Shown here in pieces: positions 1-55,368 of a stretch of DNA of 64,000 nt. The stretch is from NCBI RefSeq assembly GCF_000027125.1, contig NC_017626.1. One strand, 5' to 3'. Made by a program: the position numbers and the translations under genes. The notes below the pieces were generated by a model. That model was not told the DNA's origin. It searched no databases and was given only the letters and a program-made list of their open reading frames with translations. Each line of letters opens with the position of its first letter. Position 1 is the first letter of the stretch. Source of the DNA: Escherichia coli 042 (GTDB taxonomy: Bacteria > Pseudomonadota > Gammaproteobacteria > Enterobacterales > Enterobacteriaceae).

Positions 1-463
1 CAAGAATATCCATAACACCTTTCCGATCTATTCCGGCATCTCTAAATGGTAAACTAATAGTTAAATTTGCATTTTTCGAACTATATCCTTCACGGTAATC
101 TTCGTCTGCTCTTATTGCTACATAGCTTGTAACTTTATCACCAGCATTAAGCATCGGACGAACCCACTGTTCGAAGGGCGCGAGTTTTAACTGACGAGTA
201 CACCAACGAGTCTGCGGCGAGGGTAGAAAATGATTATATTCACGTAACCAGAAATCAAAACCACGTCTAGGGTTTAGTCTGGCAATTGGTTTGCCTAAAA
301 ATCCTTCTAATCGCCCCAAAAACTCATAGACTTCAGGTAATTCTTTACCTGTATCAGTAAAGAAATAGTCGATATCTAACTCGGGGCGTGTCTGGCGCAT
401 GAAAACAGCAAGTGCAGCACTGTCTTTACCCCCAGAAATACCAAGTACATGCTTTTCAGTCAT
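1..463 (-). CDS. PAPS-reductase-family PP-loop protein, N-terminal ~154 codons (gene continues past window start)
   Basis: Minus-strand translation from ATG at 461-463: MTEKHVLGISGGKDSAALAVF...FFTDTGKELPEVYEFL...RWCTRQLK. SGGxDS PP-loop motif and PAPS-reductase-like TDTG region. 2-bp gap after stop of upstream ATPase gene. Confidence 0.7.
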   Translation of the reverse strand, partial: MTEKHVLGISGGKDSAALAVFMRQTRPELDIDYFFTDTGKELPEVYEFLGRLEGFLGKPIARLNPRRGFDFWLREYNHFLPSPQTRWCTRQLKLAPFEQWVRPMLNAGDKVTSYVAIRADEDYREGYSSKNANLTISLPFRDAGIDRKGVMDIL

Positions 464-3400
464 TCTTAACCTCAACATCATGCTGAGCGATTTTAATACA
501 AGCTTTACCTAATGCAGCCATTATAATATCTGGGTTTAATCCTTTTCCAGATAATGTTCTAATTAACTCACCGGCGAGGTTGTCAATCTGATGGTTGAAT
601 TGCTCAGGTATACTGAATTCGTGTTTGAATGTTTTCATTTCTGAACCAGCTCCAATAACCACTGCAAATGCCTCGCTTGATGGTTTTCGTCCTTGGATCG
701 ATACTAATGCTTCGGATTGGCGAAACCGCAGTGCAAAATTGGCTATTTCCATAAGTGCTAAATCAATATCTCGATCATTCCAGTCTCTTGGAGGCTTGTT
801 TGCAGCTAGGCTGAGTATACCTTCTATAGAATAATGACTACCATCGTACGTAGCTAAACGTGTTGAAAAGGCATCTTGCCGAAGTTCGCCAGTGATACCG
901 GATAACGTTTCAGCACGTTTTCGTAGTGTAGATAAGTCATCTTTATTAGCATTCAGAGCTTTTAGCATTCTTGATGCAAATTGGTCTAAGAGTTTGTCAT
1001 AGGCACTCCAAAGTTCTTTTACTGGAGCCTGTAATGCATCAACATAATTTTTCCCACTTTCTACATTTAGAGCCGCGGCTAAATCAATAAATAAAACTTT
1101 ATGAGGATCGCTAGCTTTTAATAGTGTATCTCGTACCTTCTTCGCATTAGATGAAAGTCTCGCCGTCCTTTGTGTCCAATTTGGGAGTCCAACAATCATG
1201 GCAACTAGACTTCTGGCAGCTTCTAACGGTTCAGCTGAATTAGACATGAGACCAATAGAATCAAGAAGTTTACCAATTCCTACTAGAATCTTTTGTTTTT
1301 CATCATCAATTACAATCCACCGCAAGGAAAAACGTTTTTCATCCTGCAAGTATTCATCAATATCTGCATCAGTAAAAGTAGGAATAAATAATCCATCTTT
1401 ATAAATAGCAATATTACTTTTAGATGCCAGAAGGAAGGCCATAAATATTATCGGTATAACACCTTTTTTTAAACCAAATGGAGGTTTAGCCCAAAGGGTA
1501 TGAATATCAGATACTGATATCATTTGATTTTTATTTTTAATGAAATCATGCGTTTTCTTCCAAAGACCATAAAACGACGAATGCTTGTCGCTGACCGCAG
1601 GAAGAAAATGATAATACCCATCATGATGCTTCGCATACAAGCCGGTACGATGGAGAATCGTTTCATATAGGCCGCGTGAGGCAGGATATCCCTCAATTCC
1701 AAGATGGAGTTCACCCTCATTTTCTAGCATTCGATATAACAATTCTTTCCTGGCTTTTACGCTATTGCTGGATAAATTATCACGATTAACTAATTCACTC
1801 CATAACCTTGGAGCTTTGTAGTAAATATTATCTGCAAGAGAGGATGCAATTGATGATAAAGTACCTTTAGGTTCCGCCTGAGCAGAATCTATACACCATT
1901 CCGCAGTCGCTAATGCCTCTGCTAACTGTTCTTCTAATGTTGATTGCGTTGCACTTATCCTTGCTTGGACTTCTCTTCGTGCAACAGCATCACCTTGTAA
2001 TTCATGTCCACGTTTAGTTTGGACTATTTGAAGTGCTAGGAGTTCGGCACCTAAATCTTCTATGCGCAGGTAGTTATGTGGAATCCCGGCAACAATGGGC
2101 CATGGCTTTGAACGAGAAGCATCAGCACAAATTATTTTAGCTTGTTCTTCATTTACATTTCTTTCAGGAAGTGCCAGAAGAAATAATCCAAACTCTCCGT
2201 TACGTGGCTGGAACTCTTCTGAATATTTTTTTACCTCGTTAAGGTGACAAAGTGCAATATTCATCCAGCGAAAAGTACCAGTTTGATGGTAATGCCTTTT
2301 TGCAATTACAGGATAAAGATTAGCAATTTTATTCAGTTGACTAAAATCTGTTCCAAGCATGGTTGCACGTGATTGTGCAACGGCTTGGTCAATATTAAAA
2401 TCACTTCCTTCAAAAACAGACCATGCCCCGGTATGTTTTTTGAATATGATAACACGCCATTTAGAAAGATCTTCGAGTGCGGATCTAATATTTTCAATAG
2501 AAGTATTCAAGAATAATGATTCTAGTATGCTTGTTTCAGCGGTCAATCCTGAACCATCTTTGAAAAGGTCAAGTATTGCAATACATTTAATTAAATCAAT
2601 ATGCAATATATTATCAGATTTTGCCTCCGCACGTTCTACAGCGTCTACCGCTTGTGCCCAACGATGTCCATCATTAGAGGCCAAAATTAATTGTTCAAGA
2701 TTTGCTCTTAAGTAATCGAAATAGTTTGAGGGAAGATACCAAGTAGCCTCTTCAAATGTGGTTAGATTGAGATAGTTTTGAAACCCGAAAGGTTCAGAGG
2801 ACGAGAGAAAACCAAAAGTTGAACGCTCGTTCTGTCCAAACTGACGTTTTGATATAGGTCCTAATAAAGCAGCCATTACCGGGTGTAAAGGCCAACACTT
2901 GGATAATGCATAATCATATTGCTTTCCAACCATTGGGCGTCGATCATAAATAGCATCCGCGACTACTTGCGCTACTTTTTGAGTGTATTTGGGTCTTTTT
3001 TTAACATCTAACGCTTTACCTATAAGTTCAACAACTTCATCACTCCCTGCAACTAAGGGAATATCAGCATAACGGCCTTGGATTTTAGTCCACTCTTCAC
3101 GAGTTTCAAGTCCAAGTCGAACAGCATATTGTCCAAAAGATTGATGTAATATACCTAAGATAATGACTTTACCATTTGTACGTGCTGCAGATTCAGCAAG
3201 CTCTTGGTAAAAATAAATATCATCGCCATTTCCTAAAGCTGATGCTTCAAGGAACTTACCTAGCTCGTCAATGATAAGCAAGGTACCATCTAACTTCGCT
3301 TCATCTGCAGCACTGCATATGTGTTTAATAAGTAATGATGCTGATTTTTTATAATCTTTATCACTACCACAAACATTATTCAGAGTTTGCGAAATTTGTT

Positions 3401-3800
3401 GGATTATGCTACCTCTGCGGCCAATAACTGGAAGTATTAACCATCCTTTTTTAACTTGGAATGCTTTATCAAAATCACTTTGTGAATCGACATTTAACAA
3501 TGACCTTGCTTTTTCACGTAGAGCTTTGTTAGGTGATAATGAACTTGCAAGAACTAACGCTAATGATGATTTCCCACTTCCATACGGACCAGTCCATGTG
3601 AAAGCTCGCTGTTGGCTATTCAGAACCTGCTTGGACATGTTTTCAAGAACGCTTTGTGCCGTGCCATTGCATACATATCCATCAAGCGCATCTTCGCGGC
3701 CAAGATCAGCATCAATACGGATGGAACGTTGGTATTGTCTCGCAATGCGAACCTGTTCTGAAAGAAGGTTTTTATTATGTTTAGTCATAAGCCTTTCCAA
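456..3800 (-). CDS. Large P-loop NTPase (1114 aa), uncharacterised
   Basis: Supplied ORF; Walker A GPYGSGKSS near residue 70 and Walker B-like LLIIDELGKF near residue 175; long C-terminal extension. Overlaps upstream gene by 20 bp. AT-rich codon usage. Confidence 0.6.
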   Translation of the reverse strand: MERLMTKHNKNLLSEQVRIARQYQRSIRIDADLGREDALDGYVCNGTAQSVLENMSKQVLNSQQRAFTWTGPYGSGKSSLALVLASSLSPNKALREKARSLLNVDSQSDFDKAFQVKKGWLILPVIGRRGSIIQQISQTLNNVCGSDKDYKKSASLLIKHICSAADEAKLDGTLLIIDELGKFLEASALGNGDDIYFYQELAESAARTNGKVIILGILHQSFGQYAVRLGLETREEWTKIQGRYADIPLVAGSDEVVELIGKALDVKKRPKYTQKVAQVVADAIYDRRPMVGKQYDYALSKCWPLHPVMAALLGPISKRQFGQNERSTFGFLSSSEPFGFQNYLNLTTFEEATWYLPSNYFDYLRANLEQLILASNDGHRWAQAVDAVERAEAKSDNILHIDLIKCIAILDLFKDGSGLTAETSILESLFLNTSIENIRSALEDLSKWRVIIFKKHTGAWSVFEGSDFNIDQAVAQSRATMLGTDFSQLNKIANLYPVIAKRHYHQTGTFRWMNIALCHLNEVKKYSEEFQPRNGEFGLFLLALPERNVNEEQAKIICADASRSKPWPIVAGIPHNYLRIEDLGAELLALQIVQTKRGHELQGDAVARREVQARISATQSTLEEQLAEALATAEWCIDSAQAEPKGTLSSIASSLADNIYYKAPRLWSELVNRDNLSSNSVKARKELLYRMLENEGELHLGIEGYPASRGLYETILHRTGLYAKHHDGYYHFLPAVSDKHSSFYGLWKKTHDFIKNKNQMISVSDIHTLWAKPPFGLKKGVIPIIFMAFLLASKSNIAIYKDGLFIPTFTDADIDEYLQDEKRFSLRWIVIDDEKQKILVGIGKLLDSIGLMSNSAEPLEAARSLVAMIVGLPNWTQRTARLSSNAKKVRDTLLKASDPHKVLFIDLAAALNVESGKNYVDALQAPVKELWSAYDKLLDQFASRMLKALNANKDDLSTLRKRAETLSGITGELRQDAFSTRLATYDGSHYSIEGILSLAANKPPRDWNDRDIDLALMEIANFALRFRQSEALVSIQGRKPSSEAFAVVIGAGSEMKTFKHEFSIPEQFNHQIDNLAGELIRTLSGKGLNPDIIMAALGKACIKIAQHDVEVKND

Positions 3801-4671
3801 GCATGTTCAATTTAATTACTTCTGTTTCTGATGTTTTACGATGAACCTGGCGTAAACCAGCTGTATCAGTCCATATAAATGAACCTTCAGTTAACTCTTC
3901 TAATGCGAATAATCGTTCTGCAATAGAGTCTTCATCGAGCTTAAATACTCTACCCGGAGAACCGTCCCCATATGCAATTGTTTCGAAGGATAATGAGCTG
4001 AGATTTAGGGCCTTACGCTCCCAATAATCGATCAGAGCATAAGCAAATACACCATCAGACAAAGTAATCTTTGGACCTCGACGAAATGAAAAGTGTCCTT
4101 TTTTTTCTTCAGCTAGTAAACCTAATTCACCAAGCATAGGTTCGGCAAAGTCTTCAGGAGTGGTTCCACTCGACCGCGGTGCATAACTACGCAAACATGT
4201 CTCAATATCTCGAGAAAGTGTCATTGGTGATAGTTTTCTCCCAGGACAACATTGCGTAGCATAGTCAGCTAAAAGAGCCCGGAGGTCTTCTTGTGTAAAA
4301 GATGAAGAAACAACATGGTTAAATAACCAGTACCAAGTTGTCGAGCGTTCTCCTTTTCCTGAAAGCTTCCAATGGCTAAGCCATGCTGTCGAGGGATGCT
4401 CTGAATAAGGATCAAGCCCATGTTCGCTAAATATTTTAATAGCAAATTCTGTAAGTTTGAATTTACCATCCTCTTCTCGCATTACTTCACAGGCGAGTGC
4501 CCAATGCTTGATTGATGCGACCATGTTTTTGCCTACACCAAATTTGGCAATGGCCTCATCATTCGAAAAAACCGATTTGTCAATAGAACCATCCGGCGCT
4601 GCATAACTGCAGGTTTTTTTTAACCACATTTGTCTTAGTGGGAAGGTCTCGTGACCTGAAAAGTGAGCCAT
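3781..4671 (-). CDS. Hypothetical protein (296 aa), first gene of three-gene module; possibly a DUF4007-type protein (from memory, unverified)
   Basis: Supplied ORF MAHFSGHETFPLRQMWLKK...; ATG at 4669-4671; 20-bp overlap with ATPase start suggests translational coupling. Confidence 0.5.
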   Translation of the reverse strand: MAHFSGHETFPLRQMWLKKTCSYAAPDGSIDKSVFSNDEAIAKFGVGKNMVASIKHWALACEVMREEDGKFKLTEFAIKIFSEHGLDPYSEHPSTAWLSHWKLSGKGERSTTWYWLFNHVVSSSFTQEDLRALLADYATQCCPGRKLSPMTLSRDIETCLRSYAPRSSGTTPEDFAEPMLGELGLLAEEKKGHFSFRRGPKITLSDGVFAYALIDYWERKALNLSSLSFETIAYGDGSPGRVFKLDEDSIAERLFALEELTEGSFIWTDTAGLRQVHRKTSETEVIKLNMLGKAYD

Positions 4672-5502
4672 GACTTATCCTAATGCGATAACAACTTTGT
4701 ATAAGCTGATTGTACAGGAACTGGAGAGTTTCACCAGTGGCGGCTTTTGGACATCATTGGGGTGGCGTAGCGGTTTTTTTTTTATTTTTTTCGTTAAAAT
4801 ACATATTGTTAATTGTTTTTTATTGCGGAGGGGAACTGTCTATATCTTCTCATGCATCGGGATTTTTAACAGGCCTGAGCTGGCATGTTCTACCGTTTCA
4901 CACAGAAAGGAACAGTTAGTTTCAAACGGATACTTATCAATCAGTGGTGTGAGAAATGCTAAGAGTGGGAAACGCACTTAATTTTATGATTTCTTAGTGA
5001 CCAGTTTTTAACCATGAGCTAATCTTAAAATCTGATTTTTATCAATGAGTTAATGTTGATGTACTATGCGGCAATGAATGAAGTGTATTGCCATTCCGAA
5101 TTTTTGCTCATTTTTTAGCCATTTCCATACTTTTTTGCGTGAATATTTTATGAACAATGTTCCTTTCATAACTTATCTGTCTCAAATGATACGTTTGGAG
5201 TTTACAATTACTAAATATTTAATGTAAGTGGGAACAGCTATTTTTTGTTCATATTAGCTCCCAGCAGCAAAAGATGATGTAATTCATCCGGTGCAGAGAT
5301 AATATAGGAATGGATAATCTGGAGAGCGACTCTGCAGGCTGATATTGCGGTTTTGCGGCAAGTTTTTGGCATCCGCTTCTACGCCAAATACCTGAAGTAG
5401 GAATGGATGCGTTAGCAGCATACATCCGGATCTGCGCGGGGAATAGCCGGAAACGGCTATCCCTACCACAATAGCTAACTTTGTAATAGTGCCCTTTTAG
5501 GC

Positions 5503-6534
5503 TCATGTACTCTGACGTAATTCTATCTGGTAGTTGAATTGCACGATACGCGACTCTTCTGATTCATCATGATTATTATTCAATAGCCCAATCAGTAACT
5601 TACCCGTCTCTATCCCCATTTTTTTGTAGTCAATACGGATGGATGTCAAGGTTGGGTGTGTTTGATCGCAATTGTCTGAACCATCAAGACAAGCTACAGC
5701 GATATTTTCAGGAATTTTTAACAAACGCCGCTGGCACTCAAACATGATACCCAGCGCAATCTCTTCGTGGCTGCAAATCACAGCATCCAGCTCTGGTTGT
5801 CGCAGTAATATCTCGTTTAATGCGTAACGCCCCAATTGCAGACTTGCGGCATCCGGCATGGTGATAACAAGATCAGAGTTCTGGTAATGGCTCAACATTG
5901 CTTTATGCCAGCCGTTCAGTTGCTGACGTTGCAGGCGGTTGTCCATATGCGCACCGATAAATCCGATATTCTTATAACCCTGTTCCAGCAGATGTTCGGT
6001 CAGTTTATGTGATGCTTCAAAAAATGCTGTTTCGATGGTAATTTGAGCCGGACTGAAAGGGGAACCGACAACGTTAATGGTAGGTATATTTGTTTTCTCG
6101 AGTATCTGGTGAGTTTTATCAGCCAACTGAGAACCAAAAATAACTAACGCCGCCGGGTTGCCTTGAAGAAGCGTCATCAGAATTTCAGCTTCTTTGAGCT
6201 GATTATACTCATGACACCCAAGCAGTAGCTGGAATTCATTTTTATTAAGCACCTGCTGCAACGACTGCATAAAGCGGGAGCTGGCTTTATCTGTCAGGGA
6301 AGGAACCAGTACGGCGACTGTATCACTGTGACCAGATGCAAGGGCGCCAGCAGTTCTGTTGGGAATATAACCCAACTCTTCTACGGCCTGTTCTATCTTT
6401 TCCCTCAGCTTGTCAGATACCTGTTCCGGTGTTCTCAGCGCACGGGAAACGGTCATGGTTCCGACACCTGCAAAGTTAGCGACCTCCTGCAGCGTCACCC
6501 GTCCGGTACCACGGCGCTTACGTGTTTTTTCCAT
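5503..6534 (-). CDS. LacI/GalR-family transcriptional regulator
   Basis: N-terminal HTH VTLQEVANFAGVGTMTVSRAL followed by a periplasmic-binding-protein-like sugar-binding domain; 343 aa; divergent from the PTS genes. Confidence 0.85.
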   Translation of the reverse strand: MEKTRKRRGTGRVTLQEVANFAGVGTMTVSRALRTPEQVSDKLREKIEQAVEELGYIPNRTAGALASGHSDTVAVLVPSLTDKASSRFMQSLQQVLNKNEFQLLLGCHEYNQLKEAEILMTLLQGNPAALVIFGSQLADKTHQILEKTNIPTINVVGSPFSPAQITIETAFFEASHKLTEHLLEQGYKNIGFIGAHMDNRLQRQQLNGWHKAMLSHYQNSDLVITMPDAASLQLGRYALNEILLRQPELDAVICSHEEIALGIMFECQRRLLKIPENIAVACLDGSDNCDQTHPTLTSIRIDYKKMGIETGKLLIGLLNNNHDESEESRIVQFNYQIELRQST

Positions 6535-10766: not shown

Positions 10767-12083
10767 TCAGGACGCTGTGACTTCAGCCAGTGCGGTACGT
10801 ACTTTGCTTTCACGCCAGAAGTAGACTCCGACATAGACAAAGCAGAGCATAGAAACCAGGAATGAAAGCTGTAGTGAGTGGAACATATCTGCAATATATC
10901 CCTGAATTGCCGGAACCACCGCGGCACCGACAATAGCCATAACAATGACTGCTCCTGCCATTTCTGTATGTTCGTTATCAACTGTATCCAGTGTTCCTGC
11001 ATAGATCGTCGCCCAGCAAGGGCCAAACAAAACACTTACCAGGACGGCGACATAGACCGCGCTGAAACTTGGAGCCAGTGCAACATATGCCAGGAACAGC
11101 GCCCCTATAACGGAATAGAGAATCAATACTTTTTCCGGATTAAAACGCGTCATAAGGATGTTGGCTATAAACTTGCCAATAAAGAAGCAGGCAAAGCTAT
11201 AGACCATGAAGTTTGAAGCATCACGTTCGTTGATATCGCCCAACTCCAGCGCCAGACGGATGGTAAATGACCATACTGCGACCTGCATACCCACATAAAG
11301 GAACTGCGCCACAATACCGCGACGAAAGCGCGGATTTCTAGCCAGATAGCGCAGCGTATCCATTGCTGACGGGCGTTTATAGTGACTTGTCTGTGCCACT
11401 TTACAGGTTGGGAAGCGGGTTAAAAGGAACAACACCATGACCACAACCAGAATCATAATCATATACTTATACGGTTCAAGGGTGTTCTCTAACATCAGCA
11501 CCTTAAAGTTGTGAATTTGCTCGGCGTTCATTCCGGACATCTGCTTCTCAAGGCTTTCCCCCTCGGAGAAAACCAGATATTTGCCCAATAAAATACCAGA
11601 CGCAGCACCAATCGGATAAAAGGTCTGGCTGATATTGAGCCGCAATGTGGCATAGGCTTTTGGACCGATCATTGAACTGTATGTGTTCGCTGCAGTTTCA
11701 AGGAAACTCAGGCCAATCGCAATCGCAAAAATAGCTGCAAGGAACATAGTGTAGGTTGCCATATGCGAGGCAGGGAAAAAAAGTGTACAACCACCAATAT
11801 ACAGCGTCAGGCCAATTAAAATTGCCACCTTATAACTGGTCTTTTTAATCACAAGGGATGCTGGTATTGCAATTAAAAAATAACCTCCATAAAATGCGCT
11901 CTGCACCAATGCTGAAGCAAAGTTACTTAGCGAAAATACACTTTTGAATTGAGTGATTAATATGTCATTTAATGCAGCTGCGCATCCCCATAGCGGGAAT
12001 AAACACGATAACAAAATAAACTGGAACAAGGGAGTCTTATTCAGATACCCATCAGGCATCTGAATGATGTTTTTATCGTTCAT
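10767..12083 (-). CDS. deoP: MFS sugar permease, FucP-like (deoxyribose permease)
   Basis: 438 aa, ~12 predicted TM segments, L-fucose:H+ symporter-type; between kinase and deoX. Confidence 0.75.
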   Translation of the reverse strand: MNDKNIIQMPDGYLNKTPLFQFILLSCLFPLWGCAAALNDILITQFKSVFSLSNFASALVQSAFYGGYFLIAIPASLVIKKTSYKVAILIGLTLYIGGCTLFFPASHMATYTMFLAAIFAIAIGLSFLETAANTYSSMIGPKAYATLRLNISQTFYPIGAASGILLGKYLVFSEGESLEKQMSGMNAEQIHNFKVLMLENTLEPYKYMIMILVVVMVLFLLTRFPTCKVAQTSHYKRPSAMDTLRYLARNPRFRRGIVAQFLYVGMQVAVWSFTIRLALELGDINERDASNFMVYSFACFFIGKFIANILMTRFNPEKVLILYSVIGALFLAYVALAPSFSAVYVAVLVSVLFGPCWATIYAGTLDTVDNEHTEMAGAVIVMAIVGAAVVPAIQGYIADMFHSLQLSFLVSMLCFVYVGVYFWRESKVRTALAEVTAS

Positions 12084-12110
12084 AGTGCTACCTTTAACTG
12101 TGCAGGATGA

Positions 12111-13031
12111 TTATTCGTTTAAGGTTAAAAATTCATTAAATTGTTCAATACTCGGATAAGATGATTGCGTACCTTTCCCTGTGACGCTGAAAGCGGCAAA
12201 GAGAGCGGCTTTTTTCAAAGCGGCTTCAACATCACCGCTTTGAACATAATAATGGGAAAAGCAACCAATAAATGCGTCACCAGCGCCACTAGTATCAACA
12301 GCATTTACTTTGAATGCAGGAACATGGACTTCCTGATCGCGGGTCATCCATAATGCGCCTTTTTCGCTCATGGTAACAATAATATTGTTCAGCCCTTTAT
12401 CAACTAACGAACGTGCGGCCAAACGAATATGATCATAAGTATCAACCGACATACCGGTTAATATTTCCAGTTCTGTTTCATTCGGGATAAAGAAATCACA
12501 TTTGCAGGCATAAGACATATCTAACTCACGCAATGCCGGAGCCGGATTTAATAACACTTCAATACCATTTTTCTTACCAAACTCAATCGCGTGGTAAACT
12601 GTTTCCAGTTGAACTTCCAGTTGTAAAACGATCAATTTGCATTTTTTCAGATCTTCTGCAGCTCGATCGATATCTTCCGGGGAAAGAAATTTATTCGCTC
12701 CCTTAATTATTAATATACTATTGCTCGAGTTGGCATTAACAAAGATCGGTGCAACACCACTGCTGGTACAGGGGACCTTCTCAACATAAGTGGTATTAAT
12801 TCCCCATGATTCAAGATTACGAATAGTATTATCCGCAAAAATATCATCACCTACTTTAGTCAGCATCAGGACTTTTGAATTCAATTTAGCCGCCGCCACC
12901 GCTTGATTAGCACCTTTCCCACCACATCCGATTTTGAAGGCAGGTGCTTCCAGAGTTTCTCCTTCTTTAGGCATCTGATTAGTGTAAGTAATGAGATCCA
13001 CCATATTGGAACCAATAACTGCAATGTCCAT
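12111..13031 (-). CDS. deoK: Deoxyribokinase (ribokinase/PfkB family)
   Basis: MDIAVIGSNMVDL...GGKGANQAVAAAKL...DTSGAGDAF ribokinase signatures. Start placed at ATG 13029-13031 with GAGGT SD upstream (supplied ORF begins 27 bp earlier). Confidence 0.8.
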   Translation of the reverse strand: MDIAVIGSNMVDLITYTNQMPKEGETLEAPAFKIGCGGKGANQAVAAAKLNSKVLMLTKVGDDIFADNTIRNLESWGINTTYVEKVPCTSSGVAPIFVNANSSNSILIIKGANKFLSPEDIDRAAEDLKKCKLIVLQLEVQLETVYHAIEFGKKNGIEVLLNPAPALRELDMSYACKCDFFIPNETELEILTGMSVDTYDHIRLAARSLVDKGLNNIIVTMSEKGALWMTRDQEVHVPAFKVNAVDTSGAGDAFIGCFSHYYVQSGDVEAALKKAALFAAFSVTGKGTQSSYPSIEQFNEFLTLNE

Positions 13032-13333
13032 TTCACTACCTCTTATAAACTTTCGCATAACAATGGTATTTAAATAACATTAGCATGTTACTTTTGCATC
13101 ATTTGTGACTGAGATCGCGATTAGCACATCAACCCGATGTTTATTTAATAGACTTCCAGTCTCATCACTCAGGCCAACACTATCTAATCATAAGCAACCT
13201 AACAAGATTAGTGCCCAAAACTCAGCAGCCTATACCCTTTTCATTTCAAAGGGGCGGTCGTATAGTATGGTAATGAAAACAATGTTTACTAACGCCAAAA
13301 TGTTATTTTTATAACATTCTTACGGAGAGAGAG

Positions 13334-14119
13334 TTGATGGAAACGAAGCAAAAAGAGCGTATCCGACGTTTGATGGAACTGCTTAAGAAAACCGACAGAA
13401 TCCATTTGAAAGACGCAGCGCGAATGCTGGAAGTTTCTGTAATGACTATTCGTCGCGATCTCCATCAGGAAGATGAACCTCTGCCACTGACCCTACTGGG
13501 TGGCTATATTGTAATGGTGAATAAACCCGCGCCATCCATGCCAGTAATCCATGACGTTCCAAAAAATCATCGTGATGACTTACCTATTGCAATTCTGGCT
13601 GCCGGAATGGTTAATGAAAATGATCTGATCTTCTTTGATAATGGCCAGGAGATACCACTCGTTATAAGCATGATCCCGGATGCAATCACCTTCACCGGCA
13701 TCTGTTACTCACATCGCGTCTTTGTTGCGTTGAATGAAAAGCCTAATGTAACAGCAATACTTTGTGGTGGTACGTATCGTGCCAGAAGTGATGCTTTTTA
13801 CGATGCCAGTAACTCTTCGCCATTAGACTCTCTCAATCCGCGAAAAATATTTATTTCCGCCAGCGGTGTGCATAATCACTTTGGCGTCAGCTGGTTTAAC
13901 CCTGAAGATCTTGCCACTAAGCGTAAAGCGATGAACCGTGGACTACGGAAAATTTTGCTCGCCCGCCACGCGTTGTTCGATGAAGTGGCCTCTGCCAGCC
14001 TCGCACCGATCTCTGCATTTGACGTTCTGATTAGCGATCGTCCGTTACCGGCAGATTATGTTACGCACTGCCAGAATGGTTCTGTAAAGATCATTACACC
14101 TGATTCAGAAGACGAATGA
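13334..14119 (+). CDS. deoQ: DeoR-family transcriptional regulator
   Basis: N-terminal HTH ERIRRLMELLKKTDRIHLKDAARMLEVSVMTIRRDL and DeoR-type C-terminal domain; divergent from deoK. Confidence 0.8.
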   Translation: MMETKQKERIRRLMELLKKTDRIHLKDAARMLEVSVMTIRRDLHQEDEPLPLTLLGGYIVMVNKPAPSMPVIHDVPKNHRDDLPIAILAAGMVNENDLIFFDNGQEIPLVISMIPDAITFTGICYSHRVFVALNEKPNVTAILCGGTYRARSDAFYDASNSSPLDSLNPRKIFISASGVHNHFGVSWFNPEDLATKRKAMNRGLRKILLARHALFDEVASASLAPISAFDVLISDRPLPADYVTHCQNGSVKIITPDSEDE

Positions 14120-15083
14120 CTTACTGAAAAAACACCACAATCTTGTTAAACATCGTCGGGTTGGACTGATTACGTTGCACTTTCACCACATATTCCAGCT
14201 TATCTATTTGGCTTATCACCTACTCCAGACGCTGGCCATCCTTGACCAGTAGCCAGATATGGCTTTTGTCGCAGTCCTGAATCGGCAGGCAGAGAATGTC
14301 TTCAACGTTAAGAGCGCGACGGGCAAAAGCCCACAAAGGTGAGTCATTACACCCGGATGGTAAACAGGCACTTCCTTGTTGTAGAAGCCGTTATATTGTC
14401 CATAATGTCTGGGTTTTTAATGCATACTGGGTAACAACCGGACGAATCTTCGAATATCACTGGCGCTGCCAGCCGGTTTGAATTCATCTCACAACCCTGC
14501 ATAGAGCGAATCTCCTGCCTGCACGTCACTCCACTCCATGGTATCAACTTCACACTCTTTATCTGCGGCTAGCTTCAGCCACCAGATAAGCATCGACTAT
14601 GAAAGATGAGCCATGACAACATAACGTTGGTAACGCTCTGACGCCTTAATGGAAGATGCCTGCCACCATAGGGAATGTAAACGACTGAAGTGTGGCCTTT
14701 AATGCCGTGAACGGCTCATGGTCTCCTGGCACGGTTGCCGCCCCAACCTGTAACAACATTCCACAGTACAATGTCTGTCAGAGTCAGAGCCTCCCATGCT
14801 TGTTGTAGTAACTCTACCAGTTACGAACATCCTTCCTCAAAATTGTTGTCATATCTCGCATGGAAGAAAAGATCCTGGCTAAGGAGCAACACACAACGTA
14901 TTGCGGAACTTGCATATTTTTCCTGTAACTAGTGTATTACCACATATGGTAATAGCTACCTGTGTGGTTTCGCTGGATAGCAAGGGGATTTATAGACTGG
15001 CCCCCTGAATCTCCAGACAACCAATATCACTTAAATAAGTGATAGTCTTAATACTAGTTTTTAGACTAGTCATTGGAGAGCAG

Positions 15084-15449
15084 ATGATTGATGTCTTAGG
15101 ACCGGAGAAACGCAGACGGCGTACTACACAGGAAAAGATCGCTATTGTTCAGCAGAGTTTTGAACCGGGAATGACGGTCTCCCTTGTTGCCCGGCAACAC
15201 GGTGTGGCAGCCAGCCAGTTATTTCTCTGGCGCAAGCAATACCAGGAGGGAAGTCTTACTGCTGTGGCCGCAGGAGAGCAGGTCGTTCCTGCCTCTGAAC
15301 TTGCTGCTGCCATGAAGCAGATTAAAGAACTCCAGCGCCTGCTCGGCAAAAAAACGATGGAAAATGAACTCCTTAAAGAAGCCGTTGAATACGGGCGTGC
15401 AAAAAAGTGGATAGCGCACGCGCCCTTATTGCCCGGGGATGGGGAGTAA
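15084..15449 (+). CDS. insC: IS2 transposase OrfA (InsC)
   Basis: [26 protein letters not shown]...; supplied ORF starts at an upstream GTG. Confidence 0.9.
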
Positions 15450-16310
15450 GCTTAGTCAGCCGTTGTCTCCGGGTGTCGCGTGCGCAGTTGCACGTAATTC
15501 TCAGACGAACCGATGACTGGAAAGATGGTCGCCGCAGCCGTCACTCAGATGATACGGATGTGCTTCTCCGTATACACCATGTTATCGGAGAGCTGCCCAC
15601 GTATGGTTATCGTCGGGTATGGGCGCTGCTTCGCAGACAGGCCGAACTTGATGGTATGCCTGCGATCAATGCCAAACGTGTTTACCGGATCATGCGACAG
15701 AATGCGCTGTTGCTTGAGCGAAAAACCGCTGTACCGCCATCGAAACGGGCACATACTGGCAAAGTGGCCGTGAAAGAAAGCAATCAACGATGGTGCTCTG
15801 ACGGGTTCGAGTTCCGCTGTGATAACGGAGAAAAACTGCGAGTCACGTTCGCGCTGGACTGCTGTGACCGTGAGGCACTGCACTGGGCAGTCACTACGGG
15901 CGGCTTCGACAGTGAAACAGTACAGGACGTCATGCTGGGAGCGGTGGAACGCCGCTTCGGCAACGAGCTTCCGGCGTCTCCAGTAGAGTGGCTGACGGAT
16001 AATGGTTCATGCTACCGGGCTAATGAAACACGGCAGTTTGCCCGGATGTTGGGGCTTGAACCGAAGAACACGGCGGTGCGGAGTCCGGAGAGTAACGGCA
16101 TAGCAGAGAGCTTCGTGAAAACGATAAAGCGTGACTACATCAGTATCATGCCTAAACCAGACGGGTTAACGGCAGCAAAGAACCTTGCAGAGGCGTTCGA
16201 GCATTATAACGAATGGCATCCGCATAGTGCACTGGGTTATCGCTCGCCACGGGAATATCTGCGGCAGCAGGCCAGTAATGGGTTAAGTGATAACAGGTGT
16301 CTGGAAATAT
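15407..16310 (+). CDS. insD: IS2 transposase OrfB (InsD), 3' end altered by nested IS insertion
   Basis: DDE transposase; native ...RCLEI stop replaced, supplied ORF reads through to 16381 inside the IS66-family element. Confidence 0.8.
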
Positions 16311-16395
16311 GTAAGCGTAAACTGACCGCCGTATGTAGCCATCAGACGAGAATTGGTAACTTAGACGCCCATCTGATATAGACGGACATCTAAGT

Positions 16396-16821
16396 ATGGA
16401 ATTACAGGACTGGCGAAAAGAACCTCGTAAAAACTATTCGAATGAATTCAAACTTCGTATGGTGGAACTGGCATCACAACCTGGAGCTTGTGTTGCACAG
16501 ATTGCACGTGAAAATGGCGTCAATGATAATGTTATTTTCAAATGGCTCAGGCTCTGGCAGAACGAAGGGCGTGTTTCGCGGCGTCTTCCGGTAACGACCT
16601 CTTCTGACACTGGCGTTGAATTATTACCTGTAGAAATAACGCCGGATGAGCAGAAAGAACCTGTGGCGGCCATTGCGCCGTCTTTATCCACTTCCACTCA
16701 GACCAGAGTCAGTGCCAGTTCCTGCAAGGTGGAATTCCGTCACGGTAACATGACGCTGGAAAATCCATCGCCAGAGCTGCTCACGGTGTTGATCCGTGAA
16801 CTGACCGGGAGGGGAAGATGA
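16396..16821 (+). CDS. tnpA: IS66-family TnpA (Orf1)
   Basis: YSNEFKLRMVELASQPGACVAQIARENGVNDNVIFKWL. Confidence 0.85.
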   Translation: MELQDWRKEPRKNYSNEFKLRMVELASQPGACVAQIARENGVNDNVIFKWLRLWQNEGRVSRRLPVTTSSDTGVELLPVEITPDEQKEPVAAIAPSLSTSTQTRVSASSCKVEFRHGNMTLENPSPELLTVLIRELTGRGR

Positions 16822-17168
16822 TCTCACTCCCATCAGGTACCCGTATCTGGCTCGTTGCCGGCGTTACCGATATGCGTAAATCCTTCAACGGACTGGGAGA
16901 ACAGGTACAACATGTGCTGAATGATAATCCCTTCTCCGGTCACCTGTTTATCTTCCGTGGCCGACGGGGTGACACCGTCAAAATTCTTTGGGCTGATGCT
17001 GATGGTCTGTGCCTGTTCACCAAACGCCTGGAGGAAGGCCAGTTTATCTGGCCTGCGGTACGTGACGGCAAGGTATCCATTACCCGCTCGCAACTGGCAA
17101 TGCTCCTCGATAAGCTGGACTGGCGTCAGCCAAAAACATCCAGCCGTAACTCACTGACAATGTTGTAA
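16818..17168 (+). CDS. tnpB: IS66-family TnpB (Orf2)
   Basis: MISLPSGTRIWLVAGVTDMRKSFNGL...; overlaps tnpA stop by 4 bp. Confidence 0.85.
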   Translation: MISLPSGTRIWLVAGVTDMRKSFNGLGEQVQHVLNDNPFSGHLFIFRGRRGDTVKILWADADGLCLFTKRLEEGQFIWPAVRDGKVSITRSQLAMLLDKLDWRQPKTSSRNSLTML

Positions 17169-17198
17169 AAAACTCCTGACCGCATTATAAAAACGGTC

Positions 17199-18812
17199 AT
17201 GAGTCAGAAATACCTCATTCGCATCGCAGAGCTGGAAAGGTTGCTCTCTGAGCAGGCTGAAGCCCTCCGTCAGAAAGACCAGCAACTGAGTCTGGTTGAA
17301 GAGACGGAAGCCTTCCTGCGCTCTGCACTGACACGTGCCGAAGAAAAGATCGAAGAAGATGAACGGGAAATAGAACATCTGCGGGCTCAGATAGAAAAAC
17401 TGCGCCGGATGCTGTTCGGTACCCGTTCTGAAAAACTGCGTCGTGAAGTTGAACTGGCTGAGGCTCTGCTGAAACAACGTGAACAGGACAGCGATCGTTA
17501 CAGTGGGCGGGAAGACGATCCTCAGGTTCCCCGCCAGTTGCGACAGTCGCGCCATCGTCGTCCGTTACCGGCACACCTTCCCCGTGAAATACACCGCCTG
17601 GAGCCAGAAGAAAGCTGTTGCCCGGAGTGTGGCGGTGAGCTGGATTATCTGGGGGAAGTCAGCGCTGAACAGCTGGAACTGGTGAGCAGTGCCCTGAAAG
17701 TGATCCGCACAGAACGGGTAAAAAAAGCCTGTACAAAATGTGACTGTATTGTTGAAGCACCGGCGCCGTCCCGCCCGATAGAGCGTGGTATCGCGGGCCC
17801 CGGATTACTTGCCCGCGTGTTAACGGGAAAATACTGCGAACATCTGCCACTGTATCGTCAGAGTGAAATCTTTGCCCGCCAGGGTGTCGAACTGAGCCGG
17901 GCCTTACTCTCCAACTGGGTTGACGCGTGCTGCCAGTTAATGACACCGGTGAATGATGCCCTGTACCGTTATGTAATGAACACCCGCAAGGTTCACACTG
18001 ATGACACACCGGTAAAGGTACTGGCACCGGGTCAGAAAAAGGCGAAAACAGGGCGTATCTGGACGTATGTCCGGGATGATCGCAATGTGGGTTCGTCATC
18101 TCCTCCAGCGGTCTGGTTCGCGTACTCGCCGAACCGGCAGGGGAAACACCCGGAGCAACACCTCCGCCCCTTCCGGGGTATCCTGCAGGCGGATGCGTTC
18201 ACAGGTTACGACAGGTTGTTCAGTGCAGAACGTGAAGGTGGTGCACTGACAGAAGTTGCGTGCTGGGCCCATGCCCGGCGAAAAATCCACGATGTATACA
18301 TCAGCAGCAAAAGTGCGACGGCAGAAGAAGCCCTGAAGCGAATCAGTGAACTGTACGCCATCGAGGATGAAATACGGGGATTACCGGAGTCAGAGCGTCT
18401 TGCCGTCAGGCAGCAGCGAAGCAAAGTGTTACTGACGTCGCTGCATGAATGGATGGTGGAGAAGAATGGTACGCTGTCGAAAAAATCCAGACTGGGCGAA
18501 GCGTTCAGCTATGTACTGAATCAGTGGGATGCCCTCTGTTATTACAGTGATGACGGTCTGGCGGAGGCGGATAATAATGCTGCGGAAAGAGCGCTTCGTG
18601 CAGTCTGTCTCGGAAAGAAAAACTTTATGTTCTTTGGCAGCGATCACGGCGGCGAGCGTGGAGCACTGTTGTACGGGCTGATCGGCACCTGCCGTCTGAA
18701 CGGTATCGATCCGGAAGCGTATCTGCGCCATATCCTGAGCGTACTGCCGGAATGGCCTTCCAACCGAGTTGATGAACTCCTGCCATGGAACGTAGTACTC
18801 ACCAATAAATAA
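17199..18812 (+). CDS. tnpC: IS66-family transposase TnpC (537 aa)
   Basis: N-terminal coiled coil, CxxC...CxxC zinc motif (CCPECGGEL...CTKCDC), DDE-type core. Confidence 0.85.
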   Translation: MSQKYLIRIAELERLLSEQAEALRQKDQQLSLVEETEAFLRSALTRAEEKIEEDEREIEHLRAQIEKLRRMLFGTRSEKLRREVELAEALLKQREQDSDRYSGREDDPQVPRQLRQSRHRRPLPAHLPREIHRLEPEESCCPECGGELDYLGEVSAEQLELVSSALKVIRTERVKKACTKCDCIVEAPAPSRPIERGIAGPGLLARVLTGKYCEHLPLYRQSEIFARQGVELSRALLSNWVDACCQLMTPVNDALYRYVMNTRKVHTDDTPVKVLAPGQKKAKTGRIWTYVRDDRNVGSSSPPAVWFAYSPNRQGKHPEQHLRPFRGILQADAFTGYDRLFSAEREGGALTEVACWAHARRKIHDVYISSKSATAEEALKRISELYAIEDEIRGLPESERLAVRQQRSKVLLTSLHEWMVEKNGTLSKKSRLGEAFSYVLNQWDALCYYSDDGLAEADNNAAERALRAVCLGKKNFMFFGSDHGGERGALLYGLIGTCRLNGIDPEAYLRHILSVLPEWPSNRVDELLPWNVVLTNK

Positions 18813-19039
18813 GCGTCAATACGGTGCTCCGTTGACGCTTACGGAAATATAGGGGCAAATCCAATTTATTCGCAAGTAAAATGCCTGATAAAATACACGA
18901 ATCTAGTAATCATCAATATTTACTCTGGTCGAATGACGCGTGAAGTGGACGGCCAACAGACGCAGTCAGTGATCTACAGCCTGTTGAATAAAACCCCGGA
19001 TGCTTCCCCCGATTCTGCAAGTAATACTTCGGTTATTTG

Positions 19040-19145
19040 CACTATTTTATCCCTGTTGAATTTGGTTAAGCCGGTGCAGACGTGCCGGGAAACGCACACC
19101 TGAACCGGCACAATAAAATACAATACAACCCCCTGTTACTGGAGA
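19040..19145. repeat. 106-bp repeat, copy 1 (copy 2 at 47474-47579, one mismatch)
   Basis: cactattttatccctgttgaatttggttaagccggtgcagacg...ccccctgttactggaga present at both positions. Confidence 0.8.
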
Positions 19146-19445
19146 AATGCCTGCGCCGGGGTCCGATATGGCGGTATTGTTGCAGCCTGCGGCATGGCTC
19201 AGGGGATGGATTTGATGGGCAATATGGCTCCGTTTATTCTGCGTGGTGTCACGCTGAAAGGGATTGATAGCGTCATGTTCGCGAAAGAGAAAAGAGCAGC
19301 AATCTGGCAACAGGCGATATAGTATTTGCCAGAGTCCAGAATGGATAGTCTCACTACCGTTTATCCGCTCAGTGACGCCATCACTGTGGCTGAAAAACTT
19401 CTGAGTGGCGGAATTCGCGGTCGTGCAGTCATTCAATATAGCTAA
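19140..19445 (+). pseudogene. YhdH/AcuI-like oxidoreductase, C-terminal fragment with frameshift
   Basis: Translation [36 protein letters not shown] then, in another frame, LPESRMDSLTTVYPLSDAITVAEKLLSGGIRGRAVIQYS*; no N-terminal part. Confidence 0.45.
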
Positions 19446-19502
19446 TTAGATGGATGCCGAGCTCAGGCTTAGTATAATAAGTTTTAGGGGCTGCGGCCCC
19501 TT

Positions 19503-41873: not shown

Positions 41874-42598
41874 GTTGGAGTCATTACCTCCTCCCGAACT
41901 CAAAGCTATCATACAGATAATTACTGGTTAACCCTATATAGGGCATTTTAAAGTGTTGTGATCTTACCCAGCAATAGTGGACACGCGGCTAAGTGAGTAA
42001 ACTCTCAGTCAGAGGTGACTCACAAGACAAAACAGTTTCAACCAGTAAAAAAACGTAAACACCATTCGCATGAATTTCGTAGTTAAGATCTGAAGCTTGC
42101 AGAATGCATCGGTGTTACTGCCGGAGTCCGTGAACTTAGTCTGCATGAATCACCACAGCTTTACATCTGTCGCAGTAAACAGCAAAATCAGCAAACTTAC
42201 TTAATTATATCGAGTGCGATTACAATCGCTGGCGATGGTACAGTTGGTGTGGCGGTCTCAGTCCGGAACAATTTGAAAATCAGAATCTCACTTAAAACGG
42301 CATCCATTTTATAAAAGATGGCCGTCTGTGTATTTGTAATGAATACCTTCTACATGTTTAGAGTGCATAATCCACGACAAGGCGATATCCTAAAAATTAG
42401 CTAGCAGGCAACTTTGATGGCATAGATAATGTTTTTAGTAAAAAAGAGTTGACTGAATATAATACAGCCTCTTCCTACATAAGAAGGAATGTGCTCACAA
42501 AAAAAAACCATTAGTCTGCTTCCTGTTCTTACAATAATCAGTATTATGTATTTTATTTATATAGCAAAATATGCTTGTTACACCTGTCATAATTAGGC

Positions 42599-42892
42599 AT
42601 GGTAAAATTATTGACTGAACCCTGGGGGAGAAAGATGCACAGTGATTATTATAATATGGTTTTTGGTGAAAAATTGGCCAATATTTTATATGAAGCTAAC
42701 TCTCAATTTTTTTACGAGAGAAATGTCATAGAAGAGGCAGTCAACGCTTTATTCTGTGAGCGTGAAATAATAAACAACAAGAACATAATAAAGAAGCTGA
42801 TGTTCTTTTTGTCAGATGTTAATCACACCAAGAAAGATGTTGTTCAGAGCGCACTTAATATTATCATTGACATTACATCAGGTGATATTTGA
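42599..42892 (+). CDS. Hypothetical protein (97 aa), AT-rich
   Basis: Supplied ORF only; no recognisable motif. Confidence 0.25.
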   Translation: MVKLLTEPWGRKMHSDYYNMVFGEKLANILYEANSQFFYERNVIEEAVNALFCEREIINNKNIIKKLMFFLSDVNHTKKDVVQSALNIIIDITSGDI

Positions 42893-43211
42893 GATTTTAC
42901 ATAAAAGATAATCTCTCAAGGAGTCTTATCTGAAAACGAAATATATAGTTCCTCTCGTTTTGTAATATCGATTGGCTTTGTTGAATCGGTTACGTACCCC
43001 GGAGCCGGTCATATTTTCAGGTAATACACACGCTTTCAGACATTTCGGCTTTCGTCATTTTTGTATCATGGGCATAGCTTCTGCTACCTGACCATCATAA
43101 TCACGCAGCTTCAGTGAAGCAGTGACCACCTGTTTAACCCGGTGTATCGTTATGATCTTATCCAGCAATTGAACCGCCCCGGGTTTCCTGGAGAGTGTTT
43201 TATCTGTGAAC

Positions 43212-55104: not shown

Positions 55105-55160
55105 TAGAATAAAACGATCGATAAAACAGGTATCGATCGTTACTATCGATCGTTTATAGT
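55105..55160 (+). promoter_or_regulatory. Antigen 43 phase-variation switch (three Dam GATC sites, OxyR site)
   Basis: GATC at 55116-55119, 55135-55138 and 55148-55151, embedded in repeated cgatcg(a/t)t units, ~220 bp upstream of flu start. Confidence 0.65.
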
Positions 55161-55368
55161 GGTTAATGGTCTGCGAAAAGGCAGCTGAATCTCTTCATCA
55201 TGCAGAACGGAATTGCACACAACGGACTGATACTTCTCTGGCGGATGAGAGAGGGGAAGCATTTATGCCCGGGAAAAACCACTTTATCTGACCATGCTGT
55301 TTTGTACCTGCCGGTATCCACATTTGTGGGTACCGGCTTTTTTATTCACCCTCTGTAAGGAAAAGCTG

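Follow-up and report, generated by a model that had tools for sequence, protein, structure and literature searches.

Gene content and organization of the locus

The window analysed here, a 64,000-nucleotide stretch of Escherichia coli 042 DNA (NC_017626.1), begins with three genes on the minus strand, sspB, sspC, and sspD, followed on their 5' side by a non-coding leader (Table 1). All three are real and intact genes with intact motifs: the Walker A and Walker B motifs and the PP-loop that the first-pass annotation had pointed out were all recovered in the translations, and the PP-loop of sspD reads LGISGGKDSAAL. Also in agreement with that annotation, the three genes are co-directional and the operon extends past the window start. 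Only 154 of the 279 codons of sspD lie inside the window, the remainder being cut off by its start, and the full-length gene (279 codons) was read in identical E. coli genomes.

The gene junctions differ from those first described. For sspC, the longest open reading frame starts at a TTG at 3800 and encodes 1114 aa, whereas the ATG at 3788 gives 1110 aa; we adopted the ATG, as RefSeq annotates in identical genomes. With this start, sspB and sspC overlap by 8 bp (ATGACTAA), and the 20-bp overlap reported earlier holds only with the TTG. The ATG of sspD at 463-461 is the sole in-frame start 5' of SGGKDS, and it gives an 8-bp overlap with sspC, whose stop codon is at 458-456 (ATGACTGA), instead of the previously reported 2-bp gap. 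The 8-bp overlaps at both junctions are consistent with translational coupling of the three genes.

Table 1. Features of the ssp locus in the window
Feature	Position	Strand	Description
sspB	3781..4671	-	296-aa DUF4007 protein; DNA-nicking and target-recognition subunit of the Ssp phosphorothioation module, by homology
sspC	456..3788	-	1110-aa P-loop ATPase; Walker A GPYGSGKSS, Walker B LLIIDELGKF
sspD, 5' part	1..463	-	PAPS-reductase-like PP-loop ATP pyrophosphatase with SGGKDS
leader upstream of sspB	4672..5267	-	non-coding; probable operon promoter region, tentatively assigned

No credible open reading frame was found in the leader. It contains one promoter-like site (4812-4784, minus strand), the regional number of such sites being not above that in shuffled sequences; likewise, promoter and terminator scans of positions 1-5600 and of the neighbouring genes returned counts no higher than those of shuffles. 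An IS110 remnant is annotated just past the leader, at about 5268-5375.

Identification of SspB, SspC, and SspD

Profile searches indicate that the block is very probably an sspBCD operon, which would make up the DNA-modifying half of a phosphorothioate (PT) defence system of the Ssp type. SspB matches the PADLOC SspB model (E 6.9e-115, profile positions 2-281 of 282) and Pfam DUF4007 (E 5.3e-90, 1-287 of 288) over nearly their full lengths, and it also matches the solved/crystallised SspB entries 6JUF/6LB9 (E 1.8e-26). An alignment of 12 SspB orthologues contains 60 invariant columns. SspC matches the PADLOC SspC model from end to end (E 0, 1451 bits, 1-1044 of 1045), and its second-best PADLOC model is the weaker BrxC (E 1.2e-106, 356 bits). 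Since SspC gave no significant match to Pfam, NCBIfam, or PDB sequences, its assignment stands on the PADLOC models and on synteny. The part of SspD inside the window matches the PADLOC SspD model with E 1.6e-80 (269 bits, 1-151 of 277), and the full-length protein from identical E. coli genomes with E 1.3e-140 (1-277 of 277). The second-rank PADLOC match of SspD is BrxP (E 1.3e-10, 38 bits), and Pfam PAPS_reduct is matched with E 1.6e-6.

These results bear out the first-pass annotation in taking the block for a DNA sulfur-modification or defence module, in describing the large protein as a BrxC-like P-loop NTPase, and in placing the PP-loop protein with DndC, SspD, and BrxP and not with CysH, SspD being its best profile. 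On the other hand, the suggestion that the system is uncharacterised was wrong, as the three proteins match SspB, SspC, and SspD end to end. The block is thus an already described system, and alone it contributes no more than a rare and divergent E. coli lineage of a known module.

Comparison with other Ssp loci

The sspBCD genes typically form a three-gene operon, in which sspB encodes a nickase and sspD an ATP pyrophosphatase that binds SspA, and the product of the system is CpsCA (PMC8092258, PMC7188994). The B-C-D order with overlapping genes is therefore the canonical Ssp layout and not, as had been claimed, an order that fits no known system. It is also seen in E. coli loci with bona fide SspE or SspFGH, and sspB, sspC, and sspD are kept together in all 15 related loci examined (Enterobacterales, Xanthomonadales, Moraxellales, and Burkholderiales). 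Identity to the SspE- or SspFGH-linked E. coli proteins is 52-53% for SspB, 44-45% for SspC, and 75-76% for SspD. Considering that SspB and SspC are only 44-53% identical to their nearest SspE- or SspFGH-linked E. coli counterparts, the target motif could differ from CCA.

The SspABCD-SspE systems of Vibrio cyclitrophicus FF75 and E. coli 3234/A (Xiong et al. 2020, as cited in PMC8092258) share with the window the three modification proteins and their order, and the modification module of the SspBCD-SspFGH system of Vibrio anguillarum FF-93 (PMC8092258) is likewise the same. Compared with the SspE-linked E. coli proteins (53% identity for SspB and 44% for SspC), the SspB of the window is 20 residues shorter. 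The window's locus contains no sspA. In some related loci, including those of Xanthomonadales, an Aminotran_5 cysteine desulfurase gene (sspA) lies right after sspD, whereas E. coli 3234/A and V. anguillarum FF-93 resemble the window in having no sspA in the locus; sspA is replaceable by iscS, and IscS stands in for SspA in these two strains (PMC8092258).

The main difference concerns the partner. The SspE-type E. coli locus L017 has its effector slot facing sspD in convergent orientation, and the SspFGH-type E. coli locus L016 has the same convergent layout; both arrangements agree with that of the window's locus. However, SspE-type systems have SspE and SspFGH systems have SspF, SspG, and SspH, and none of these lies beside the operon studied here; SspE is absent throughout its flanks. 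The PADLOC SspE, SspF, SspG, and SspH models gave no match at E<=0.01 in the two genes flanking sspD, while the same models match strongly in other E. coli loci, and SspE and SspFGH proteins used as tblastn queries found nothing in locus L001. Hence the locus has SspB, SspC, and SspD in the order sspB-sspC-sspD, the complete modification module, but not the adjacent partner of the described complete types (SspBCD with SspE or SspFGH). SspE is a DUF262/GmrSD-type protein. Xanthomonadales-type loci have a gene encoding some 335-370 aa upstream of sspB, which was considered as a possible shared nuclease and rejected; it is lineage-restricted and bears no relation to the extra genes in loci L011 and L020.

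Genomic island context

The GC content is 0.395 at positions 1-4671, lower than in the window as a whole (0.495) and in the core chromosomal flank (0.516). The locus sits in an AT-rich genomic island beside a tRNA-Leu gene, which we take to be leuX (the record says only tRNA-Leu), with an integrase adjacent, and it is present in 9 of 5426 complete E. coli genomes, in two of which sspC or neighbouring genes are annotated as split. The low GC content, the integrase, the tRNA-Leu gene, and the rarity of the locus together point to horizontal acquisition, as the first-pass annotation had proposed from base composition. To place the far boundary of the island, the window was searched for a repeat of the tRNA-Leu 3' end; allowing up to 3 mismatches gave no match. 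Strains carrying the locus include NCTC9082 and CV839-06. No cys genes adjoin sspBCD, which agrees with the earlier view that a CysH role is unlikely.

A MORC-like kinase and receiver pair beside the operon

Beyond the window start, the slot that SspE or SspFGH fills in other E. coli strains is occupied by a different pair of genes. The first, convergent on sspD, encodes a protein of 794 aa that joins a MORC-like ATPase to a histidine-kinase core, with HATPase_c_3, an HEF_HK-like H-box, and HATPase_c, and the next encodes a 614-aa receiver-domain protein (Response_reg_2). The catalytic His, Asp, and Lys residues of the pair are invariant. This is the architecture of the HEF_HK/Response_reg_2 two-component-like pairs that have been related to paraMORC ATPases (Bellieny-Rabelo et al. 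2021, PMC8011034): the first protein is soluble and combines a MORC-type GHKL ATPase, an H-box, and a kinase CA domain, and the Response_reg_2 protein carries the conserved Asp/Ser-Thr/Lys set. That study ties the family to type II R-M, C5-methyltransferase, and Vsr genes, with no mention of ssp, dnd, PAPS reductase, or DUF4007, whereas the pair described here lies beside SspBCD.

In 15 of 16 loci sampled from Gammaproteobacteria and Betaproteobacteria, including Acinetobacter baumannii, the pair directly adjoins sspBCD, the loci representing at least four arrangements and three or more SspBCD lineages. In several of them the pair comes about 50-70 bp after sspA, both being on the same strand. 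Two of the searches for relatives fall short of a census: profiling with alignment A2 gave back exactly the 78 proteins already retrieved with a single sequence as query, and a scan of genome contigs with two peptide patterns recovered 4 loci. The A. baumannii locus L022 (strain VB1190) has the same five-gene layout, with a GHKL/kinase protein 37% identical to that of E. coli followed by a 637-aa protein, and then convergent sspD, sspC, and sspB (products 69%, 41%, and 45% identical to those of E. coli, respectively); in sequence these proteins are distant relatives. An Ssp system without sspE has been reported in A. baumannii global clone 2, with no analysis or experiment on the pair (PMC12421847), and the tie between L022 and those clone 2 systems is by species only. 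One speculative sentence in that paper is all that we found on Ssp together with GHKL, paraMORC, or histidine kinase proteins in the literature, in which subscription journals were thinly covered.

For the receiver protein, Pfam identified only Response_reg_2 in all 73 members, and a PDB profile search gave nothing credible. Foldseek returned a weak MazF/PemK-like match spanning some 115-140 alignment columns (best E 3.6e-3, with no hit reaching E<=0.001), which is given no weight here, and a nuclease fold was absent among the top matches for either protein of the pair.

Discussion

Our results suggest that the module most likely writes single-strand PT marks, which would serve as a self-mark for phage defence. 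By analogy with characterised systems, a cysteine desulfurase would free sulfur from cysteine, and housekeeping IscS is proposed for this step because there is no sspA in the locus. IscS is a core gene of E. coli. SspD, the PP-loop ATP pyrophosphatase, would take up and activate the sulfur; SspB, the DUF4007 nickase with winged-helix DNA-binding domains, would choose and nick the target strand; and SspC, the large P-loop ATPase, would power scanning or assembly. The predicted outcome is a single-strand PT mark, which is 5'-CpsCA-3' in characterised systems, and a separately encoded partner would use it to discriminate or sense phage DNA. Production of PT, its sequence motif, and the partner that reads it are all predicted here from the known systems. 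Some isolates with sspBCD or dndCD gave no detectable PT (PMC12914056), and gene presence is therefore no proof of modification.

The pair may be a third kind of Ssp partner. One reading, which we consider a serious possibility though slightly less likely than not, places this sspBCD in a third Ssp class, where the PT mark is linked to a two-gene phosphorelay in place of SspE or SspFGH. Of the two genes, the first would encode a histidine-kinase core (H585) joined to a GHKL DNA-clamp ATPase of the MORC/MutL type, and the second a receiver (D142) whose C-terminal part, about 400 aa long, would be the output region. In such a scheme the MORC module would read DNA or PT status, and ATP-driven autophosphorylation followed by transfer to the receiver would switch on the output, which might be restriction, toxicity, or regulation.

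Alternatively, sspBCD may be an orphan serving epigenetic or redox DNA modification with no dedicated restriction partner, and the kinase-like pair would then be an independent tenant of the same island. In its favour, 84% of 2,678 sspBCD loci have neither SspE nor SspFGH, and other roles have been proposed for solitary PT systems (PMC8092258). Moreover, the wider HEF_HK/Response_reg_2 family lies mostly beside C5-methyltransferase and Vsr genes and not ssp (PMC8011034), and no ssp genes lie within 10 kb of one relative of the pair (L020). Against it stand the adjacency in 15 of 16 loci across these arrangements and SspBCD lineages, the exact placement of the E. coli pair where other strains have SspE or SspFGH, and the loci in which the pair closely follows sspA on the same strand. 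We regard this orphan reading as rather unlikely.

Far less probable is a BREX type 4-like system, with BrxP as the PAPS-reductase protein and BrxC as the large ATPase. DndABCDE and BREX type 4 both, like Ssp, combine a PP-loop sulfur-transfer enzyme, a large NTPase, and a cysteine desulfurase to produce PT DNA, and the secondary PADLOC matches to BrxC and BrxP as well as a weak NCBIfam BrxC match can be read in this way. Nevertheless, the profile scores widely favour Ssp (1451 against 356 bits for the ATPase and 269 against 38 bits for the PP-loop protein), and the NCBIfam BrxC match reaches 24 bits against a cut-off of 400. A DUF4007 gene is present; to our knowledge DUF4007 is not a BREX component, and SspB is specific to Ssp. 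What refutes BREX type 4 is the absence of pglZ and brxL, neither PglZ nor BrxL being found within 20 kb on either side. Finally, the operon has a negligible chance of being a Dnd-type system for double-strand phosphorothioation, or of holding a CysH or tRNA-thiolation housekeeping enzyme whose neighbours are unrelated. These readings were rejected on profile scores and missing partner genes, as the weak matches of the PP-loop protein to DndC (E 1e-6) and PAPS_reduct span only about 60 residues in the case of DndC and score 20-23 bits with TIGR03183 (cut-off 290), no DndB, DndD, DndE, or cys genes are adjacent, and sspD is translationally coupled to sspC.

The interest of the locus lies beside the block, in a MORC-like kinase and receiver pair with all catalytic residues conserved, which this locus and 14 related ones, including that of A. 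baumannii, consistently couple with sspBCD. Should the pair read the sulfur mark or act upon it, some of the apparently orphan Ssp systems would have an explanation, and the locus would provide a rare case of two-component phosphotransfer within DNA-modification-based immunity. If the phosphorelay reading holds, the locus would represent defence gated by His-Asp phosphotransfer, and it would share its architecture with the sspE-less Ssp locus in the A. baumannii record. The pair as an Ssp partner is a lead amenable to direct work in E. coli. In Polaromonas pPNAP02 and in one metagenomic locus, SspF, SspG, and SspH occur together with the kinase-like pair.

The ssp operon

Three co-directional genes occupy the minus strand at the start of the window, two as complete open reading frames and a third leaving it, as the first-pass annotation had described. 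The minus-strand reading below 463, MTEKHVLGISGGKDSAAL..., is stop-free down to position 2, and thus the third gene begins at the ATG given in the table and carries the operon past the window start, also as proposed. The 3' end of sspB, ...GCTTATGACTAA, contains the ATG (3788) that is the RefSeq start of sspC in identical genomes; from this ATG the two genes overlap by 8 bp, and the 20-bp overlap described earlier holds only with the TTG at 3800. The sspD ATG sits inside the 3' end of sspC, ...AAGAATGACTGA, so that the presumed 2-bp gap is in fact an 8-bp overlap. The translations contain all three stated motifs (Walker A, Walker B, SGGKDS). The reported AT-richness was also borne out: GC content is 0.395 in 1-4671, 0.495 across the window as a whole and 0.516 in the conserved chromosomal flank.

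Features of the ssp loci and their surroundings
Feature	Location	Strand	Remark
sspB	window 3781-4671	minus	296-aa complete ORF (ORF list)
sspC	window 456-3788 (ATG) or 456-3800 (TTG, 1114-aa ORF)	minus	1110 aa from ATG
sspD, 5' part	window 1-463	minus	ATG at 463-461; runs past window start
Gene-free stretch	window 4672-5502		sspB to LacI-family regulator
IS110 transposase remnant	window ~5268-5375		RefSeq annotation
IS102 RNA	window 55114-55350	plus	74.6 bits
tRNA-Leu and tyrosine integrase	CV839-06 locus 13438-14975		ssp locus at start of large mosaic island
GHKL ATPase (MORC/MutL-like) and histidine-kinase core fusion, 794 aa	CV839-06 locus 15244-17628	plus	convergent on sspD
Receiver-domain protein, 614 aa	CV839-06 locus 17631-19475	plus	convergent on sspD
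SspE and pair flanking sspBCD	L018 2147-14253 and beyond		Salmonella Livingstone
SRA-domain gene	L004 6303-7430		Pseudomonas xantholysinigenes
DndB-family gene	L006 11894-13162; L015 11887-13152		PF14072, ~420 aa
Transposition genes	L019 2248-7838		betaproteobacterial contig
Gene divergent from sspB	L012 1-1039; L014 91-1098; L015 7-1119		~335-370 aa, unannotated

The three proteins are SspB, SspC and SspD. The 296-aa protein matches PADLOC SspB (E 6.9e-115, profile 2-281/282), Pfam DUF4007 over its full length (E 5.3e-90) and the crystallised SspB 6JUF/6LB9 (E 1.8e-26). The 1110-aa protein matches PADLOC SspC (E 0, 1451 bits, profile 1-1044/1045), its second PADLOC match, BrxC, being far weaker (356 bits); it has no match among Pfam, NCBIfam or PDB sequences, which explains its RefSeq label 'hypothetical protein'. 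Both the 154-aa sspD fragment (E 1.6e-80, profile 1-151/277) and the full-length 279-aa protein (E 1.3e-140, 1-277/277) match PADLOC SspD, with only a modest PAPS_reduct match in Pfam. Readings as DndC or BrxP were rejected, the matches being short and far under the curated cut-offs.

It has been reported that sspBCD is typically a three-gene operon (PMC8092258), that single-strand phosphorothioate (PT) formation requires the nickase SspB, and that SspD is an ATP pyrophosphatase which binds SspA, the product being 5'-CpsCA-3' (PMC8092258; PMC7188994). Together with the PADLOC matches, this identifies the block as the canonical Ssp modification module. The gene order, previously thought to fit no known layout, is that of the typical Ssp operon (PMC8092258), and the profile searches suggested by the first-pass annotation assigned the proteins rather than revealing a novel system. 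The operon is therefore a further example of the known SspBCD kind and not an uncharacterised system, and the suspicion that this real operon was horizontally acquired was upheld. We infer PT formation and the PT motif for this locus from the established Ssp pathway: IscS would donate persulfide sulfur, SspD would activate and then transfer it, SspB would pick and nick the target strand, and SspC would provide ATP-driven scanning or assembly, giving a single-strand PT mark.

Carrier genomes and other E. coli ssp loci

Among 5426 genomes searched, window 1-5200 was found at 99.9-100% identity in nine complete E. coli chromosomes and in no others. Sequence past position 1, whose recovery had been advised, was read from E. 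coli CV839-06 (99.94% identity to the window across 25 kb). It completes sspD and gives the order tRNA-Leu, tyrosine integrase, a 794-aa 'sensor histidine kinase' and a 614-aa hypothetical protein (hereafter the pair) and, convergent on these, sspD, sspC and sspB, followed by a non-coding stretch of ~600 bp, an IS110 remnant, and a LacI-family regulator with PTS genes. Among the E. coli genomes, the same nine and no others carry the pair. No cys genes, in agreement with the earlier remark, and no sspA, pglZ, brxL, dndD or dndE are present in the CV839-06 locus. In two of the nine carriers, NZ_CP122722.1 (ETEC1747) and NZ_CP146556.1 (B1.H1.39), sspC and/or the pair genes are annotated as two pieces each, which could reflect frameshifts or assembly errors.

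A more sensitive DNA search found sspD-like genes in 16 more E. coli genomes (69-71% nucleotide identity), and two of these loci were inspected. SspF-SspG-SspH in strain S10, and a DUF262 protein in strain E2386, face sspD-sspC-sspB convergently. The window-type locus shares this layout, but the slot taken by SspFGH or SspE in those strains is filled by the pair. PADLOC scores SspF, SspG and SspH of S10 and SspE of E2386 very high, so the lack of any PADLOC match between the SspE, SspF, SspG and SspH models and the window-type sspD neighbours is meaningful. Moreover, window SspB, SspC and SspD are 52%, 44-45% and 75-76% identical to the S10 and E2386 sets, whereas the latter share 83%, 76% and 92% with each other; by these identities the window carries a separate SspBCD lineage.

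The neighbouring gene pair

Pfam places HATPase_c_3 in the N-terminal and HATPase_c in the C-terminal part of the 794-aa protein, with a non-significant HEF_HK match between; its AlphaFold model has a mean pLDDT of 76.7. Among 32 homologues no variation is seen in the N-box (E28/N32/D35), G1 (D124/G126/G128) and G2 (G161-R167) residues of the first ATPase, in H585-E586 of the H-box, or in the kinase-domain N, G1, F and G2 boxes. The 614-aa protein matches Response_reg_2 weakly, and the full receiver catalytic set (D19-D21, D142, S177, K206-P207) is invariant among 73 homologues. Its C-terminal ~400 residues have no confident assignment; Foldseek gave a weak MazF/PemK-like fold (best E 3.6e-3, ~115-140 alignment columns; model m77dd214b7694, target TM-score ~0.66), too weak for function. 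A 2021 paper predicted the architecture of the pair, describing it as a two-component-like element with kinship to paraMORC ATPases and with links to type II R-M and C5-methyltransferase/Vsr genes (PMC8011034). Neither ssp, dnd, PAPS reductase nor DUF4007 is mentioned there; here the neighbour is SspBCD.

When homologues were sampled down to 36% (kinase protein) and 29% (receiver protein) identity, sspB-C-D stood together directly beside the pair in 15 of 16 distinct loci, the kind of co-occurrence that the first-pass annotation had asked about. Only a 22-kb metagenomic contig (L020) departs from this, with ssp genes absent within 10 kb. The pair is convergent on sspD in E. coli, Pectobacterium, Pseudomonas xantholysinigenes and P. 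abyssi, Acinetobacter baumannii VB1190 having the layout of E. coli, and is convergent beside Tn7-like genes in a betaproteobacterium (L019). Co-directional sspB-C-D-sspA-pair, with ~50-70 bp from sspA to the kinase gene, occurs in Dokdonella, Pseudoxanthomonas, Xanthomonas campestris, and one ENA and one JGI metagenomic contig; P. fluorescens is co-directional with no sspA. One JGI contig has, in this order, the pair, an opposite-strand sspA, sspBCD, and SspF and SspG homologues. On Polaromonas plasmid pPNAP02, SspFGH and then the pair are convergent on sspDCB, and in Salmonella Livingstone an E2386-type sspBCD (89-94% identical) is flanked by SspE and, at its opposite end, by the pair. The arrangements of the pair thus number at least four, and the SspBCD lineages that it accompanies at least three, which argues for functional coupling beyond shared descent of one island. 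Since the pair also co-occurs with SspE or SspFGH, it may add to them instead of strictly taking their place.

We favour the view, as yet unproven, that the pair is a phosphorelay-gated partner of sspBCD. Contact with DNA and the sensing of PT status would fall to the MORC-like module, and phosphorylation of D142 in the receiver protein to the kinase core; the receiver C-terminal region would then carry out restriction, toxicity or regulation. Alternatively, sspBCD may be a solitary epigenetic module and the pair an independent or regulatory system. The pair does stand alone in L020; the recurrence across lineages and arrangements argues for the partner reading. A 2025 study of A. baumannii noted that 5518 of 5530 Ssp-positive genomes lack sspE (PMC12421847). 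Our literature search, incomplete in coverage, found no analysis or experiment on the pair beside ssp, and this conserved candidate partner module beyond the window is apparently new to experiment.

Surroundings of the loci

The Salmonella Livingstone locus (L018) lies in a dense defence island with a PLD-helicase gene, an Mrr-like nuclease and a BrxL-like gene. Just upstream of the kinase-like gene, P. xantholysinigenes (L004) encodes a 375-aa protein whose SRA and N-terminal domains are of ScoMcrA type. Because enzymes of the ScoMcrA family are nucleases that depend on modification or PT, it could be a further PT reader in that locus. In two Xanthomonadales-type loci (L006, L015) a DndB-family gene, accompanied by a ~175-aa gene, is convergent directly past the pair. 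The ~335-370-aa genes divergent from sspB in Xanthomonadales-type loci show 43-60% mutual identity; the E. coli locus lacks this gene, and the extra genes of L011 and L020 are not related to it. TnsA-like, rve/Mu-transposase, TniB and TniQ genes lie beside the pair and sspBCD in L019, where a transposon may carry the five-gene unit as its cargo.

Copies of IS66, IS100 and IS3, together with lpxM, virK, capU, fecIRABCDE and Ag43, make up a mosaic island in the remaining window; the insertion lies beside the tRNA-Leu gene, with the ssp locus at its start. No repeat of the tRNA-Leu 3' end is present throughout the 64-kb window, and the far island boundary was therefore not located. Between sspB and the LacI-family regulator, ~830 bp hold no credible gene, and the IS110 remnant there may mark the junction of the ssp module with older island DNA. 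The IS102 RNA is the sole Rfam match at the gathering threshold, and other low-GC island patches (0.36-0.43) lie at ~12000-14000, 28000-31000, 42000-43000 and 53000-54000.
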